Assembly: GCF_041248615.1 (NCBI RefSeq) | Contig: NZ_CP158426.1 | Origin: Escherichia coli | GTDB taxonomy: Bacteria; Pseudomonadota; Gammaproteobacteria; Enterobacterales; Enterobacteriaceae | DNA length: 64,000 nucleotides | Reading direction: 5' to 3' (one strand) | In this document: piece by piece, positions 43,012 to 49,176 of the stretch | Layout: each line of letters opens with the position of its first letter | Position numbering within the stretch: position 1 is the first letter of the stretch | Notes under the pieces: generated by a model | The model's database searches: none | What the model was told of the DNA's origin: nothing | The model's input: only the letters and a program-made list of their open reading frames with translations | Made by a program: the position numbers and the translations under genes

Positions 43012-43317
43012 ATGATGCCCACTCTGGAAGAGCTTCGTGTTCAGTGCCGGATTGATGATGACAATGAACAGGAGAATTCTCTTCTTATGATGTATCTGGC
43101 TGCTGCCAGGGAAGAGGCTGAAAAGTTTTTAAACCGGACGCTTTACGATGAAACTGTTTCTGAGCAGGATACGACCGGGCTTGTAATAACACCTCTGATA
43201 AAACTGCGTCTTATGCAACTGGTTGGCTACTGGTACGAGAACAGGGAAATGCAGGATGCAGTGCCTGATTTTTTCTATACCGGACTGCGGATGTATCGAT
43301 TTCATCCCGGAACATAG
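43012..43317 (+). CDS. Head-tail connector (gp6-like)
   Basis: 101-aa ORF in the conserved position. Confidence 0.65.
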   Translation: MMPTLEELRVQCRIDDDNEQENSLLMMYLAAAREEAEKFLNRTLYDETVSEQDTTGLVITPLIKLRLMQLVGYWYENREMQDAVPDFFYTGLRMYRFHPGT

Positions 43318-43325
43318 GAGGATTC

Positions 43326-43664
43326 ATGCAGGCAGGAAGATTACGTGATCGTGTGGTTATTCTGAATGCCACCACCGTTCGGTCTCCGTCAGGGCACCCT
43401 GTGGAAACAATGACGGAGGGGGCAACCATATGGGCAGAAGTTAAGGGGATCAGTGGCAGGGAGAGAATATCCGGAGGCGCAGAAACTGCTCAGGCTACAG
43501 TGAGGGTCTGGATGAGATTCCGGCGAGATGTAACAGCAACTTCATGTCTGAAAGTGCTGACTGGTGCATTCAAAGGCGCGATTCTGAGTATAGACGGTCC
43601 GCCGATACCGGATGCTCGTGCCACACGGCTTGAGATACTCTGTTCTCAGAAGGGGAATGTGTGA
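43326..43664 (+). CDS. Head closure protein
   Basis: 112-aa ORF in conserved order. Confidence 0.65.
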   Translation: MQAGRLRDRVVILNATTVRSPSGHPVETMTEGATIWAEVKGISGRERISGGAETAQATVRVWMRFRRDVTATSCLKVLTGAFKGAILSIDGPPIPDARATRLEILCSQKGNV

Positions 43665-44110: not shown

Positions 44111-44451
44111 GAGAGACCACACTGTATTCCCTGCTGTCTCAACTGGCCGGAGGACAGGTTTATCCTTATGTGGTCCCGCTGACGGAGGGAAAGCCTGCGG
44201 TATCTCCGCCATGGCTGGTATTTTCTGTGGTGTCTGACACTGCGTCTGATGTGCTTGATGGTCAGGCTGAATCCAGAATTACCGTGCAGATCGATGTCTG
44301 GGCAACAGTACCTGATGACGCAGATGATATCCGTGAGCAGGCGCTTGATGCGGTAAGGCAACTTGCACCCTCCGTTATTTCTAAAACTCAGGGTTATGAT
44401 CCTGATTCCCGTCTGAGCAGAGCCACGCTTGAATTTCAGGTAATAGCCTGA
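44107..44451 (+). CDS. Tail completion protein
   Basis: 114-aa ORF preceding major tail gene. Confidence 0.55.
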   Translation: MRETTLYSLLSQLAGGQVYPYVVPLTEGKPAVSPPWLVFSVVSDTASDVLDGQAESRITVQIDVWATVPDDADDIREQALDAVRQLAPSVISKTQGYDPDSRLSRATLEFQVIA

Positions 44452-44472
44452 GGTCGTTAATGATTTTACCCA

Positions 44473-44498
44473 CCCGCCGCTGGCGGGTTTTTTATTTT
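44473..44498 (+). terminator. Strong hairpin plus T-run upstream of major tail gene
   Basis: CCCGCC-GCT-GGCGGG then TTTTTTATTTT. Confidence 0.5.
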
Positions 44499-44510: not shown

Positions 44511-45215
44511 ATGTCCTCTAATTTTGAGCGTTCGCAACTGACGAAAATTATGATTTCGTCTGCACCGGTAACAGCAGAAACCCTGGATTCTGCCAGCTAT
44601 CTTGGCCTGAGCTGTACAATCAAAGAGGTGCAGTTTACCGCAGGACAAAAGCAGGATATTGATGTCACCACGCTGTGTTCTGTTGAGCAGGAAAATATTA
44701 ACGGCCTTGGTGCCGCGTCAGAGATTTCCATGTCAGGCAACTTTTACCTCAATGCTGCCCAGAACGCGTTGCGCAGTGCCTATGACAATGACACCACGTA
44801 TGGCTTTAAAGTTATTTTTCCGTCAGGCAACGGATTTACCTTTATGGCAGAGGTGCGTCAGCATACCTGGTCTGCAGGAACTAATGGTGTTGTGGCTGCA
44901 ACGTTTTCCCTGCGCCTGAAAGGTAAACCTGTGCTGACGACAGAGCCGCTGAAAGTGAAGGTCGATTTAAACAGCACGCTGCAGGTTTCTGCCGGAGCGA
45001 AACTCGAAATGGTGGTTGAGGCTGCCGGTGGTGTGCCGCCTTATTCTTATGTCTGGAAGAAAGGTAGTTCTCCTGTTTCCGGACAGACGGCGGCAACATT
45101 CAGTAAGGCATCAGCAGCATCAGGTGATGCCGGTGCGTATACCTGCGAGATTTCTGATTCAGCAAGCCCTGTTAACAAGGTGACCTCCACTTCCTGCACT
45201 GTTACCGTCAGTTAA
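44511..45215 (+). CDS. Major tail protein with C-terminal Ig-like domain
   Basis: Start MSSNFERS; C-terminal ~90 aa with Ig-like pattern (LQVSAGAKLEMVVEAAGGVPPYSYVWKKG...YTCEISD). Confidence 0.8.
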   Translation: MSSNFERSQLTKIMISSAPVTAETLDSASYLGLSCTIKEVQFTAGQKQDIDVTTLCSVEQENINGLGAASEISMSGNFYLNAAQNALRSAYDNDTTYGFKVIFPSGNGFTFMAEVRQHTWSAGTNGVVAATFSLRLKGKPVLTTEPLKVKVDLNSTLQVSAGAKLEMVVEAAGGVPPYSYVWKKGSSPVSGQTAATFSKASAASGDAGAYTCEISDSASPVNKVTSTSCTVTVS

Positions 45216-45229
45216 TGAGGATAGATGTG

Positions 45230-45601
45230 ATGACTAAAAATATCCGCAATCTGGCACTGGCAACGATGTCGGGGTTTCGCCACAAAACTGTTGATGTGCC
45301 TGAATGGGAAGGGGCAACGGTTGTATTACGGGAACCTTCTGCAGAAGCCTGGTTGCGCTGGCAGGAGATCGTTAAAGCAAAAGATGATGAGACACCGTTA
45401 TCCGTTGCGGAGCGCGCCCGCCGAAATCTGGAGGCAGATGTTGAACTGTTCATTGATGTTCTGTGTGATACCGGACTGCAACCTGTATTTTCAGAGGATG
45501 ATCGTGAACAGGTGATTGCCGTGTATGGCCCGGTGCATGCGCGGCTTCTTCGGCAGTCTCTGGAACTGATCAGTGATGCCGGCGAGGTTAAAAAAAAGTA
45601 G
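45230..45601 (+). CDS. G: Tail assembly chaperone G
   Basis: Start MTKNIRN with GAGGA RBS; ends ...GEVKKK at the slippery A-run. Confidence 0.75.
   Translation: MTKNIRNLALATMSGFRHKTVDVPEWEGATVVLREPSAEAWLRWQEIVKAKDDETPLSVAERARRNLEADVELFIDVLCDTGLQPVFSEDDREQVIAVYGPVHARLLRQSLELISDAGEVKKK
45588..45598 (+). other. Programmed -1 ribosomal frameshift site (G to GT)
   Basis: A-run GTTAAAAAAAAG at end of G; -1 frame opens right after TAA at 45589-45591 and continues to 45903. Confidence 0.55.
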
Positions 45602-45903
45602 AGCTTCCGGGGATGCGTTTTCTGATGATGCTGGCGCTCAGGATGGGGCGCACATTGTCAGAGTTACGCCGGGAAATGTCCGCATCAGAAATCATGATGT
45701 GGGCAGAATTTGACAGGTTCAGCCCGCTGGGTGACGAGCGGGCTGATATCCGGGCTGCCCAGATAGTTTCTGCGGTTTACGGTGCGCAGGGTGTCAAAGT
45801 CCCACTGAATGATGCGCTTCTTCAGTGGGAACAAGAGCAGACAGAAGGCGTCTCAGATCCATTTGCCGGACTGGAAAACGCGCTTTTAATAGTGTCTCAG
45901 TGA
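45592..45903 (+). CDS. T segment of the GT frameshift chaperone
   Basis: -1 frame relative to G; KKVELPGMRFLMMLALRMGRTLSELRREMSASEIMMWAEFDRF... Confidence 0.6.
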   Translation, partial: KKVELPGMRFLMMLALRMGRTLSELRREMSASEIMMWAEFDRFSPLGDERADIRAAQIVSAVYGAQGVKVPLNDALLQWEQEQTEGVSDPFAGLENALLIVSQ

Positions 45904-45911
45904 GTCAACAT

Positions 45912-45932
45912 AACCGCTTCGGCGGTTTTTTT
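45912..45932 (+). terminator. Hairpin plus T-run between GT and tape-measure gene
   Basis: ACCGC-TTCG-GCGGT then TTTTTTT. Confidence 0.45.
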
Positions 45933-45948: not shown

Positions 45949-48900
45949 GTGGCGACATTACGTGAACTGATTATTAAAATCTCGGCAAATTCCCGGTCAT
46001 TCCAGTCAGAGATCTCCCGGGCTTCGCGTATGGGGCAGGATTACTACCGTACCATGCAGAACGGAGGCCGGCAGTCCGCTGCTGCATCCCGTGAAATGCG
46101 GCGTGCACTGGCAGAAGTGACGGATCAGATAAATACAGCTAAATCTTCGGCACTGAATATGGCGGGGGCATTTGCCGGAGCTTTTGCTACCGGTCATCTT
46201 ATTTCTCTCGCCGATGAGTGGAATTCAGTAAATGCCCGTCTGAAGCAGGCTTCACAGTCCAGTGATGATTTTCGGGTATCACAACGTGAATTAATGGCAA
46301 TCAGCCAGAGAACGGGAACGGCGTTTTCTGATAACGCCAGCCTTTTTGCCCGCTCTGCAGCTTCCATGCGGGAGTATGGCTACAGTTCTGAGGAGGTACT
46401 GAAAGTCACCGAGGCGATCTCCACGGGCCTGAAATTATCCGGTGCCAGTACAGCAGAAGCCAGTTCGGTGATCACGCAGTTCAGTCAGGCACTGGCGCAG
46501 GGAGTGCTGCGCGGTGAAGAATTTAACTCTGTGAATGAGAACGGCGATCGTGTTATTCGTGCGCTGGCTGCGGGAATGGGTGTTGCCCGTAAGGATCTGA
46601 AGGCCATGGCGGATAACGGAAAACTGACCGCCGATAAGGTTGTTCCTGCACTGATTAGTCAGCTTGGGGCGTTGCGTGATGAATATGCAGCAATGCCTGA
46701 TACTGTTTCATCCTCTGCAACCAAAGTTGAAAACGCCTTTATGGCCTGGGTTGGTGGTGCGAACGAGGCAAGCGGAGTGACAAAGACACTCACCGGGGTG
46801 TTGAATGGTGTTGCAGACAATATTGATACCGTGGCTGCTGCAGCTGGCGCACTGGTTGCCGTCGGGGTAGCCCGATATTTTGGCAATATGGCGTCGTCTG
46901 CTGGATCTGCAACTGCCGGATTAATTACTGCAGCCAGAAACGAAGTGGCTCTTGCTGAAGCGCAACTTCGGGGGACACAGATAGCAACCGCCAGGGCGCG
47001 TGCGGCGGTTTATCGTGCGCAACAGGCGGTTGTTGCTGCTCGCGGTACCGAAAGGCAGGCCGCAGCAGAAGCGAAGCTGACAGCTGCCCAGGCGTCACTT
47101 ACCCGTAATATTGCGGCCAGAACAGCGGCACAGACAACGCTGAATACTGTCACGTCAGTGGGGAGTCGTCTGTTAAGTGGTGCGCTGGGGTTGGTTGGTG
47201 GTGTGCCGGGACTAGTCATGCTGGGGGCGACGGCCTGGTACACGATGTATCAGAATCAGGAGCAGGCCAGAGAATCTGCACGCCAGTATGCCGCAACAAT
47301 CGACGAAATTCGCCAGAAAACGTCGGCAATGTCGCTTCCTGAAGCGTCAGATAATGAGGAAAAGACGCGGCAGGCACTTGATGAGCAAAACAGGTTAATT
47401 GACGAGCAGAAAAGTAAGATTAAATCCTTACAGGAAAAAATTGCTGGCTATCAGTATGTGCTGGCAAACCCGGGCTGGACAACCGATAACGGTTTTATGA
47501 TTAACCACATGACGTCGGTAAAAACTGTCACAGAAGGGCTTGCAGAAGCAACAAATCAACTGGCAGTTGAACAGTCCCGTCTCACACAAATGCAGGGCAA
47601 AGCGCAATCCATTCAGGATGTGCTTGCCGGGCTGGAGGAGCGACGGGTGGCGTTGATCCGTCAACAGGCCGCGGAACAAAACAAAGCGTATCAGTCCCTG
47701 TTGATCATGAATGGGCAGCATACCGAGTTTAATCGCCTTCTCGGGCTCGGTAATGAATTACTTCAGCAGCGACAGGGGCTGGTGAATGTACCGTTACGGC
47801 TACCACAGGCAACCCTGGATGATAAACAGCAGACCGCACTGAATAACAGCGAGCGCGAACTGGCTCTGTCCCGCCTGAAGGGGGAAGCCCGTGAGCGTGC
47901 CCGCCTGGGTTATGCTGCGGATGATCTCGGCTTTGTGGGAGAGGCGTATCAGACAGCCAGACAGAATTATATCAATAACTCACTGGATGCCTGGCGAAAT
48001 AACCAGGCAAATAAACCCAAAGCGCATAAAAAGACCGAAGCGGAAAAAACAGAAGATATTTATAAACGGCTGATTAAACAGCAAAAAGAACAAATAGCAC
48101 TGGCAGGGCAGAATACTGAACTGGCTAAGATGAAATATCAGGTCAGTCAGGGCGAATTATCAACCCTGTCAGAAGCGCAGAAAAAAACGCTTTTGCAGAA
48201 TGCAGCACTCATCGACCAGAAAAAGATTCGTGAGCAGCTTGCTGCGTATGAGAGCAGTCTGGCGGACAGTAATGCCAGTGCCCGGGCATCTGACGAAGCG
48301 CAGTTGCTGGGATATGGTGAAGGCTCACGGATGCGTGAACGACTCCAGGAAATGTGGAGTATCCGGCAGGCGTTTGAGCAGAAAAATAACGAGCTGCTGA
48401 GACAGTATCAGGCCGGAGAAATTGAAGAAGCCCTGTGGAAACAGGAGAAAGAACTGAATAAAAAATATCTGGAAGAGCGTCTCAGCGATCAGCAGGATTA
48501 TTATGCAAAGGCCGATGCTTTACGTAATAACTGGAATGCCGGACTCCAGGAGGGACTGACCAACTGGGCAGACAGTGCTACCGATTATGCTTCACAGGCG
48601 GCAGATGCTGTCGTTTCCACGATGGACGGGCTGGTATCAAATATTTCCGATGCACTGGCCGGGAATGTTGTGGACTGGAGGAACTGGGGGAGTTCAGTTC
48701 TCCGGGAAGTTTCAAAAATTCTGATGAATGCAGCCATTGTTAACGGACTGAAATCACTCTCCGGTGCCGGAGGGTGGCTTGGTACGGTCGGCGGATGGAT
48801 TTCGGGGGCAGTGGCAAACGCAAAAGGTGGTGTTTACACATCGGCAAATCTGAGTGCTTACAGTAACACTATTGTGGATACACCGACGTATTTTGCTTTT

Positions 48901-49176
48901 GCGAAAGGTGCCGGGTTGATGGGCGAGGCCGGGCCTGAAGCAATCATGCCACTGACACGGGCAGCGGACGGCTCTCTTGGGGTCAGGGCCATTGGAAATG
49001 TGAATGGTGGCGGTGGATTTGTTTATTCTCCCGTGTATCACATCAGCATTCAGAATCAAGGGAGCAATGGCGAGATAGATGCGCGCTCAGCCAGGGGACT
49101 GGTGGATCTGATCGACAGCAGGGTTGTGTCAATTATGCAGTCATCGCGTCGGGATGGAGGATTGTACAGTGCCTGA
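45949..49176 (+). CDS. H: Tail tape measure protein (lambda H-like)
   Basis: 1075-aa ORF, coiled-coil/Ala-Gln-rich, position after G/GT. Confidence 0.9.
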   Translation: MATLRELIIKISANSRSFQSEISRASRMGQDYYRTMQNGGRQSAAASREMRRALAEVTDQINTAKSSALNMAGAFAGAFATGHLISLADEWNSVNARLKQASQSSDDFRVSQRELMAISQRTGTAFSDNASLFARSAASMREYGYSSEEVLKVTEAISTGLKLSGASTAEASSVITQFSQALAQGVLRGEEFNSVNENGDRVIRALAAGMGVARKDLKAMADNGKLTADKVVPALISQLGALRDEYAAMPDTVSSSATKVENAFMAWVGGANEASGVTKTLTGVLNGVADNIDTVAAAAGALVAVGVARYFGNMASSAGSATAGLITAARNEVALAEAQLRGTQIATARARAAVYRAQQAVVAARGTERQAAAEAKLTAAQASLTRNIAARTAAQTTLNTVTSVGSRLLSGALGLVGGVPGLVMLGATAWYTMYQNQEQARESARQYAATIDEIRQKTSAMSLPEASDNEEKTRQALDEQNRLIDEQKSKIKSLQEKIAGYQYVLANPGWTTDNGFMINHMTSVKTVTEGLAEATNQLAVEQSRLTQMQGKAQSIQDVLAGLEERRVALIRQQAAEQNKAYQSLLIMNGQHTEFNRLLGLGNELLQQRQGLVNVPLRLPQATLDDKQQTALNNSERELALSRLKGEARERARLGYAADDLGFVGEAYQTARQNYINNSLDAWRNNQANKPKAHKKTEAEKTEDIYKRLIKQQKEQIALAGQNTELAKMKYQVSQGELSTLSEAQKKTLLQNAALIDQKKIREQLAAYESSLADSNASARASDEAQLLGYGEGSRMRERLQEMWSIRQAFEQKNNELLRQYQAGEIEEALWKQEKELNKKYLEERLSDQQDYYAKADALRNNWNAGLQEGLTNWADSATDYASQAADAVVSTMDGLVSNISDALAGNVVDWRNWGSSVLREVSKILMNAAIVNGLKSLSGAGGWLGTVGGWISGAVANAKGGVYTSANLSAYSNTIVDTPTYFAFAKGAGLMGEAGPEAIMPLTRAADGSLGVRAIGNVNGGGGFVYSPVYHISIQNQGSNGEIDARSARGLVDLIDSRVVSIMQSSRRDGGLYSA

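Follow-up and report, generated by a model that had tools for sequence, protein, structure and literature searches.

A predicted programmed -1 frameshift at an A_AAA_AAG-TAG signal in an HK97-type G/GT tail assembly chaperone locus of Escherichia coli

Examination of the window, that is, the whole 64,000-nucleotide stretch of Escherichia coli DNA analysed here, revealed a phage tail assembly chaperone gene, G, that ends on an A_AAA_AAG heptamer and is overlapped there by a second reading frame, T, lying in the -1 register. Several independent lines of evidence support a frameshift interpretation of this arrangement, and we consider it highly probable that T is expressed through G/GT-class programmed ribosomal frameshifting in the -1 direction. 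The locus falls within the HK97-type G/GT chaperone family and carries the A_AAA_AAG+TAG signal found in the ECs1801 cluster.

The G and T frames and their overlap

The genes of the locus are ordered as tail tube, G, T, and tape measure, followed by lambda-like M, L, K, I, and J genes, and the two open reading frames found between the tube and tape measure genes are those looked for in the G/GT class. Relatives within the clade, referred to below, were sampled in two scans of viral contigs of 80 loci each, with the contigs partly shared between scans. The features of the locus and of the overlap are as follows.

44511..45215, + strand: major tail (tube) protein with a C-terminal Ig-like domain, a RefSeq CDS with weak matches to Phage_TTP_11 and Phage_tail_2 and matches also to Ig_2 and Ig_3
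45230..45601, + strand: G, tail assembly chaperone of 123 aa by standard decoding, ending at TAG and identical to RefSeq CDS WP_000164661.1
45589..45591, + strand: -1-frame stop TAA immediately 5' of the heptamer, formed within GTT AAA or ATT AAA in the clade
45590..45597, + strand: A8 run holding the first six bases of the heptamer, and a possible minor site of RNA polymerase slippage
45592..45598, + strand: slippery heptamer A_AAA_AAG, the proposed -1 shift site, computed to lie in X_XXY_YYZ phase with G
45599..45601, + strand: 0-frame stop TAG adjoining the heptamer, a candidate 'shifty stop' with a putative stimulatory role
45598..45903, + strand: T segment, the -1 codons following the shift, with base 45598 read twice; 101 sense codons and TGA
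45949..49176, + strand: tape measure protein of 1075 aa, matching PF06120 (1e-93), PF20155 (3e-57), and PF09718 (2e-13)

The start of G is most likely ATG 45230, which has GAGGA 8 nt on its 5' side and is also the RefSeq start, in place of the ATG at 45215 given by the open reading frame finder. Searched against Pfam, the product was found to belong to PF06222 Phage_TAC_1, the HK97 gp13 family, with E = 2e-58 and a score of 195.9 bits (cut-off 25) over model positions 1-124 of 124, and HK97 gp13 itself scores 203.3 bits on the same model. G also matched phrog_344, tail assembly chaperone, and a solved structure, PDB 2OB9, entitled 'Tail assembly chaperone', at E = 3e-49. No match of G to PF06894 Phage_TAC_2, the family of lambda G, was found at E values up to 0.01, and no NCBIfam model matched G, T, or GT.

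In the 0-frame, the 3' end of G reads GGC GAG GTT AAA AAA AAG TAG, encoding GEVKKK and the stop. The first-pass annotation, which had G ending with these residues on an A-run, was correct to the base, with the eight A at 45590-45597 and the TAG at 45599-45601. It had also described a -1 frame opening right after a TAA and running for 312 nt, and this too was borne out, as the frame is open from 45592, directly after the TAA at 45589-45591, to the TGA at 45901-45903, giving 312 nt including the stop and 103 sense codons. G occupies frame 2 and T frame 1 (mod 3), and the two overlap by exactly 7 nt. Because the heptamer is flanked by a -1-frame TAA on one side and the 0-frame TAG on the other, a productive -1 shift is restricted to the 7 nt of the heptamer. 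The TAA is probably a by-product of the codons in which it is embedded.

The arrangement exceeds chance expectation. The + strand of the 64-kb window contains 12 copies of AAAAAAG and two runs of eight or more A. Stretches open for 100 codons or more, on either strand of the window, contained 141 in-phase X_XXY_YYZ heptamers, and that at 45592-45598 was the sole efficient motif located 0 nt from a 0-frame stop with a 100-codon -1 extension.

Joining 45230..45598 to 45598..45903 produces a GT protein of 224 aa, in which GEVKKK is followed directly by VELPGMRF at the junction. The -1 frame belongs to PF06223 Phage_tail_T (E = 4e-19; 69.3 bits against a cut-off of 25.9, over model positions 1-69 of 73), a family that also takes in the HK97 T part and lambda T, the latter with a score of 54.1 bits. 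When compared with PHROG 14766, a profile of 224 positions, G aligned at positions 1-121 and the -1 frame at positions 123-220 in colinear order. As the profile spans G and then the -1 frame, its members represent the fused protein.

Among the clade relatives, variable sites in the T region numbered 29, 24, and 54 at the first, second, and third codon positions of the -1 frame, respectively, and this excess at third positions indicates that the T frame is under coding selection. Coding selection was evident in both the G and the T frames.

Conservation of the -1 relationship and of the shift site

The segment is 100% identical to a prophage of E. coli SMS-3-5. Of 5,426 complete E. coli genomes, 900 contain the locus, which is also present, at 96-99% identity, in 11 sequenced phages, including phi467 and Evi. 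More diverged homologues were sought by tblastn with the GT fusion as query, a match in two pieces being taken to mark a change of frame. Such two-piece matches were obtained with HK97 (61.5% identity over GT), Stx phages (approximately 63%), Aeromonas phage AsXd-1 (64%), Klebsiella phages (approximately 58%), mEp390 (52%), and Burkholderia phages (36-38%). The first-pass annotation had set loss of the -1 frame among relatives against its own reading; the frame was instead kept across the HK97, Stx, Klebsiella, Aeromonas, and Burkholderia phages. In the HK97 record, the two parts are joined in a CDS annotated as 'translated due to a -1 frameshift', and joined frameshift CDSs are likewise present in the records of KS9 and Bcep176.

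The -1 relationship is maintained in these diverged relatives despite differences in both sequence and shift site. G of Stx2a_WGPS6 ends in AGA AAA AAG TAG, with the same heptamer and abutting TAG as the window. In Bcep176 and phiE125, an in-phase A_AAA_AAG is found 30-33 nt ahead of the stop. The shift site is A_AAA_AAA within an A7 run in KS9, G_GGA_AAG in mEp390, and the non-canonical CGG GAA AAG in HK97 and AsXd-1.

Within the clade, A8 and TAG are invariant while the flanking codons vary, save in two contigs with A9 and two with A7, and in one of the scans the run length was 8 in 80 of 80 loci. Those with A9 (L163 and L164) arose through a G to A change at the Z position of the heptamer, which becomes A_AAA_AAA, while the A7 contigs (L134 and L140) have G thrown into the +1 frame. 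Homopolymer runs are prone to indels, and the A7 contigs could be taken to favor a decayed locus, in which an ancestral single GT gene has been broken by a 1-nt indel in the A-run and the tail module is defective. Against this, A8 and TAG are found in all the remaining copies examined, isolated phages (phi467 and Evi, for example) included, the locus is present in hundreds of complete E. coli genomes as enumerated above, the two-frame layout is ancestral across the phage groups found by tblastn, and both frames are under coding selection. We regard the probability of decay as close to nil.

The A8 run raises a further alternative, that the main route to GT is transcriptional slippage, with an extra A added by RNA polymerase at 45590-45597 to give A9 mRNAs that encode GT continuously. 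The existence of natural A9 variants is in keeping with this proposal, as is the finding that longer A-runs gave higher efficiency in the magnesium chelatase cassettes of Antonov et al. (PMC3711429). Selection against slippage-prone runs is typically seen from 9 nt, yet 8 As are productive in some IS elements, and an A8 in human apoB leads to about a tenth corrected product (PMC1088944). The product would be the same as that of ribosomal slippage, making this route compatible with the reporter data; since the two processes give the same junction peptide, mass spectrometry cannot separate them. Nonetheless, the run of the window falls short of the 9 nt at which selection typically appears (PMC1088944), and homologues having G/GT possess only 6-7 As, as in the Stx homologue (AGAAAAAAG) and three Burkholderia phages (Bcep176, GGAAAAAAG; phiE125, GCAAAAAAG; KS9, A7), or no run at all, as in mEp390 and HK97. 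The homologue sites are all in the ribosomal X_XXY_YYZ phase, which transcription would not need, and the A6 cassette of the Stx type already reaches 7%. An A/T run of at least 9 that is conserved irrespective of phase, the pattern looked for with transcriptional slippage, was not what was found. We therefore consider it very unlikely that transcriptional slippage is the main route, while slippage on A8 may be a minor contributor.

RefSeq annotates 'phage tail assembly chaperone' and 'phage tail assembly protein T' as separate CDSs, and includes no 224-aa GT. T is treated as a CDS of its own from the ATG at 45613 in RefSeq and in most phage records, and in one phage record T is broken into fragments. 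The start codon in question is the following.

45613..45615, + strand: ATG from which RefSeq begins a stand-alone T CDS (45613-45903)

This annotation corresponds to an alternative in which T is an independent gene that begins at ATG 45613, or at Met 45625 or 45628, possibly by termination-reinitiation, with no fusion being made. In its favor, the ATG lies 11 nt past the stop of G and is present in most relatives, and the PF06223 match begins at residue 30 of the -1 frame, so the whole domain would be retained in a protein started there. However, the codon is not conserved, being replaced by ATT (L156 group), ATA (L138 and L163), or GTG (L048), and absent in the Stx homologue. GGGG adjoins the ATG directly with no spacer and would not be a usable Shine-Dalgarno (SD) sequence. 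T is thus a second open reading frame without a conserved start of its own and without a spaced SD sequence, as in the G/GT class. The residues between the heptamer and ATG 45613 show conservative substitutions, V[AE][LIM]PG[MI]. In addition, G and T form a single polypeptide in PHROG 14766 and in the three phage records with joined CDSs, and the T region of lambda is described solely as part of gpGT (PMC5009743). An independent T gene is, in our estimation, extremely unlikely, and ATG 45613 most likely encodes a Met inside GT. An FLMM motif kept in relatives includes the Met codons at 45625 and 45628, where weak internal initiation may occur.

Proposed decoding and candidate stimulators

For the preferred reading, a programmed -1 ribosomal frameshift, we propose the following events. 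Most ribosomes would translate G from 45230 to 45601 and stop at the TAG, yielding the 123-aa chaperone, while a few per cent would slip back by one base on A_AAA_AAG at 45592-45598. The slip could be a tandem event in which the P-site tRNA-Lys moves from AAA to AAA and the A-site tRNA-Lys from AAG to AAA. Alternatively, with the A site occupied by TAG, which is decoded slowly, the P-site tRNA-Lys might move from AAG to AAA, in the manner of the 'shifty stop' effect reportedly described by Weiss et al. in 1987. By either route, the ribosome would go on to read GTA GAG CTT in the -1 frame and continue to 45903, producing the 224-aa GT (...GEVKKKVELPGMRF...).

An efficiency in the low per cent range would be expected for the shift in this phage. 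In E. coli, the bare A_AAA_AAG heptamer gives 0.29% frameshifting, a value that rises to 4.3% when the IS911 stimulators are present and to 39% with the pseudoknot of IS3 (PMC4066793 Table S3). Antonov et al. in 2013 reported a 41-member 'phage tail assembly chaperone' cluster resembling HK97, of which two cassettes were tested in E. coli (PMC3711429). The cassette of the Stx type, with A_AAA_AAG and TAG, supported 7% -1 frameshifting in a GST-MBP reporter (PMC3711429), and that of the mEp390 type, with G_GGA_AAG, supported 6% +/- 0.61 (PMC3711429 Table S2). Since the native Stx-type cassette reaches 7% versus 0.29% for the bare heptamer, context must help. A useful level of GT at the site in the window would likewise be expected to require stimulators beyond the heptamer, and the candidates are the abutting TAG, a GAGG, and a predicted hairpin. 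The latter two, and a smaller element inside the hairpin, are located as follows.

45584..45587, + strand: SD-like GAGG, a possible weak modulator 4 nt upstream of the heptamer
45605..45674, + strand: predicted extended hairpin of 70 nt, a candidate clade-specific stimulator starting 7 nt past the heptamer
45634..45651, + strand: inner hairpin GCGCUC-N6-GGGCGC, with 7 pairs conserved across the family and a covariation term of -0.33

The TAG following the heptamer does not vary among clade members, and the Stx homologue has it as well. Most clade members retain the GAGG, but the L156 group has lost it (GAA GTT ATT) and the Stx homologue lacks it. The spacing rule for such SD elements is 6-17 nt upstream (PMC4066793), which places the GAGG of the window, at 4 nt, on the edge.

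The extended hairpin was predicted at -31.7 kcal/mol with z = -2.68 in an 82-nt segment, and 0 of 200 shuffled sequences were as stable. Its predicted stems pair 45605-45609 with 45670-45674 and 45615-45618 with 45666-45669, and its start falls inside the spacing of 4-10 nt past the heptamer that is looked for in a dnaX/IS911-type signal. Clade variants gave similarly negative values, with z = -3.49 for L156 and z = -2.91 for L163. No compensatory pairs were found in the hairpin within the clade, where the few substitutions are mostly pair-breaking, and the hairpin is not conserved in the Stx or HK97 homologues. Shorter segments of 37-62 nt past the stop folded no better than shuffled sequences. 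The sole part of the structure that survives in the Stx and HK97 homologues is the inner hairpin, which overlies the conserved peptide ALR[ML]GR and, at 36 nt from the heptamer, is too far away for a classical stimulator. Variability is low from 45610 to 45790, which reaches well past the hairpin and coincides with a mosaic jump in identity, seen in L163 as a change from approximately 76% in G to 95-100%; on account of this jump and of the extent beyond the hairpin, we did not credit the low variability to RNA structure. A separate hairpin returned by alifold, with the A-run in its loop, was set aside, as the window sequence pairs poorly and the structure would in any case be opened by a ribosome positioned there.

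We also considered a composite signal, in which RNA polymerase slippage on A8 or A9 acts along with ribosomal slippage, with the hairpin and TAG as stimulators, and the combination sets the level of GT. Such a composite appears unlikely to us. If it were true, the G:GT ratio would be unlike the 30:1 of lambda, and run length would tune the ratio or, as with A7, break it.

Relation to known systems and consequences for tail assembly and annotation

The frameshift of G/GT-class tail assembly chaperones was reportedly treated by Levin in 1993 and by Xu, Hendrix, and Duda in 2004. The first-pass annotation had called the GT fusion analogous to lambda G/GT, and this was sustained with regard to gene order and the PF06223 T part. 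It required correction with regard to the closest relative, which is HK97 gp13/gp14, the G of lambda being a member of PF06894.

HK97 gp13/gp14 resembles the window in having PF06222 and PF06223 proteins, a GT that is 61.5% identical as found with tblastn, the same position between the tube and tape measure genes, and the -1 relationship. HK97 differs in its shift site, CGG GAA AAG, where the 49-nt overlap contains no canonical in-phase heptamer, and in the 128-aa length of its G. Furthermore, a moron (gp15) separates T from the tape measure gene in HK97, whereas in the window this interval contains only a terminator-like hairpin.

The signal itself is closest to that of ECs1801 from the Sakai/Stx prophage, which has the same families, a GT approximately 63% identical, and an in-phase A_AAA_AAG followed directly by TAG, and which belongs to the Phage_TAC cluster of Antonov et al.; its products are 124 and 226 aa, as compared to 123 and 224 aa in the window. 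Sharma et al. in 2014 classified cluster A_AAA_AAG_25, the tail assembly chaperone cluster of ECs1801 with 53 genes and products of 124 and 226 aa, as a true case (PMC4066793 Table S4). That cluster has no conserved SD and a conserved downstream hairpin (PMC4066793). The Stx/ECs1801 locus differs from the window in its A6 run (AGA AAA AAG) versus A8, in lacking a -1-frame TAA ahead of the heptamer so that the overlap is 22 nt rather than 7, in having no ATG that matches 45613, and in a predicted downstream structure unlike that of the window.

With lambda G/GT, the window has in common a PF06223 T and the gene order and, as predicted, a low-level -1 shift near the end of G and a G:GT ratio of importance for tail assembly. 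The G of lambda belongs to PF06894 (9e-62), and no alignment of window G with lambda G was obtained by BLASTP at E values up to 10, nor was similarity between the T parts found by this method; the T parts of the window and lambda are linked by profile methods only. The lambda heptamer is G_GGA_AAG, located 15 nt ahead of the stop of G, and its T frame is 144 codons long compared to 103 in the window.

The same A_AAA_AAG heptamer and the same shift-prone tRNA-Lys are used in dnaX and in IS911 and IS3, whose products and biology are unrelated to those of the window. In these systems, frameshifting of 4-50% is reached with proven stimulators, namely an SD approximately 10 nt 5' of the heptamer and a stem-loop or pseudoknot 5-6 nt past it, whereas the window has a candidate GAGG 4 nt upstream and a candidate hairpin for which covariation support was not found.

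In lambda, where the ratio of gpG to gpGT is approximately 30:1, the tape measure protein is bound through the G part and the major tail protein through the T domain; virions contain neither gpG nor gpGT, and conservation of this arrangement is widespread among long-tailed phages (PMC5009743). By analogy with lambda, many copies of G and the G part of the few GT would coat the tape measure protein encoded at 45949-49176, presumed here to be the partner of the G domain. The T domain would then recruit the tube protein encoded at 44511-45215, its presumed partner on the lambda model, and polymerization would begin. Both G and GT would be expected to be absent from the finished virion, as in lambda.

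Much of this is already known. G/GT is a textbook case, the HK97 version is annotated, and a homologous signal has been both catalogued and tested with reporters. As the window holds a 63%-identical relative of that signal, this type of signal in the family was already known; the scientific gain is small, and the practical value lies in annotation. The joined GT CDS is missing from RefSeq, an omission that could be corrected in approximately 900 E. coli genomes, and the stand-alone 96-aa 'tail assembly protein T' now in RefSeq is probably never made as such. The locus would also provide a compact natural test case, with its two stops confining the overlap to 7 nt and with A6, A8, and A9 variants existing in nature, in which the contributions of the abutting stop, of run length, and of ribosomal versus transcriptional slippage could be separated.

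Variation of the A-run and of T among related loci

The A8 run at window positions 45590-45597, which includes the first six bases of the slippery heptamer A_AAA_AAG, differs in length in four of the related loci. Two viral contigs, L134 and L140, carry A7 at the equivalent position (approximately 1561-1567 of each locus), which shifts G into the +1 frame to give a 160-residue product and leaves T no longer reachable by a -1 shift. These shortened runs are either homopolymer assembly errors or the mark of decayed prophages. The run is lengthened to A9 in L163 and L164, where it reads GTT AAA AAA AAA TAG.

Compared with the window (locus positions 1201-1900, equivalent to 45230-45900), L163 and L164 are mosaic, with an abrupt change where G meets T. 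They are 66-80% identical to the window across G and 95-100% identical over 45610-45790, and upstream of G their identity was at the random level in an ungapped comparison. The GenBank record of phage vB_EcoM-606R7 (L002) divides the T region (1877-2204) between a pair of short coding sequences that overlap, each labelled "tail assembly chaperone", and this split suggests an indel or a sequencing error within T in that record.

The lambda frameshift site and a T_TTT_TTC heptamer in the window

The 82 nt lying 3' of the G_GGA_AAG heptamer in lambda (L172, 1217-1298) were predicted to fold with an energy of -36.4 kcal/mol (z = -3.45), and none of 200 shuffled sequences was as stable. The predicted structure begins 8 nt 3' of the heptamer. 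Within the window, another in-phase heptamer was found in the head-tail connector open reading frame (43012-43317):

43269-43275, T_TTT_TTC, 39 nt upstream of the stop codon

The -1 frame from this heptamer continues through the head closure gene (43326-43664). Since the head closure gene has its own ATG, the open -1 frame is probably a coincidence of neighbouring genes.

Hairpins and the tube protein flanking G and T

Three further features were located around G and T:

44472-44497, terminator-like hairpin ACCCGCC-GCT-GGCGGGT, followed by a T-rich stretch
44970-45212, in-frame C-terminal Ig-like domain of the tail tube protein (Ig_2 and Ig_3 matches)
45912-45932, hairpin resembling an intrinsic terminator, AACCGC-TTCG-GCGGTT, with a trailing T7 run

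The first hairpin lies downstream of the tail completion gene, which ends at 44451, and ahead of the tube gene, whose start in RefSeq is 44511; were the start predicted by the ORF finder (44460) used instead, the hairpin would fall within the open reading frame. Lambda V likewise has an Ig-like C-terminal domain.

The other hairpin lies midway through the late tail operon, in the 45-nt gap separating the T stop codon from the start of the tape measure gene. At the equivalent position, HK97 carries a moron with putative terminators on both sides.
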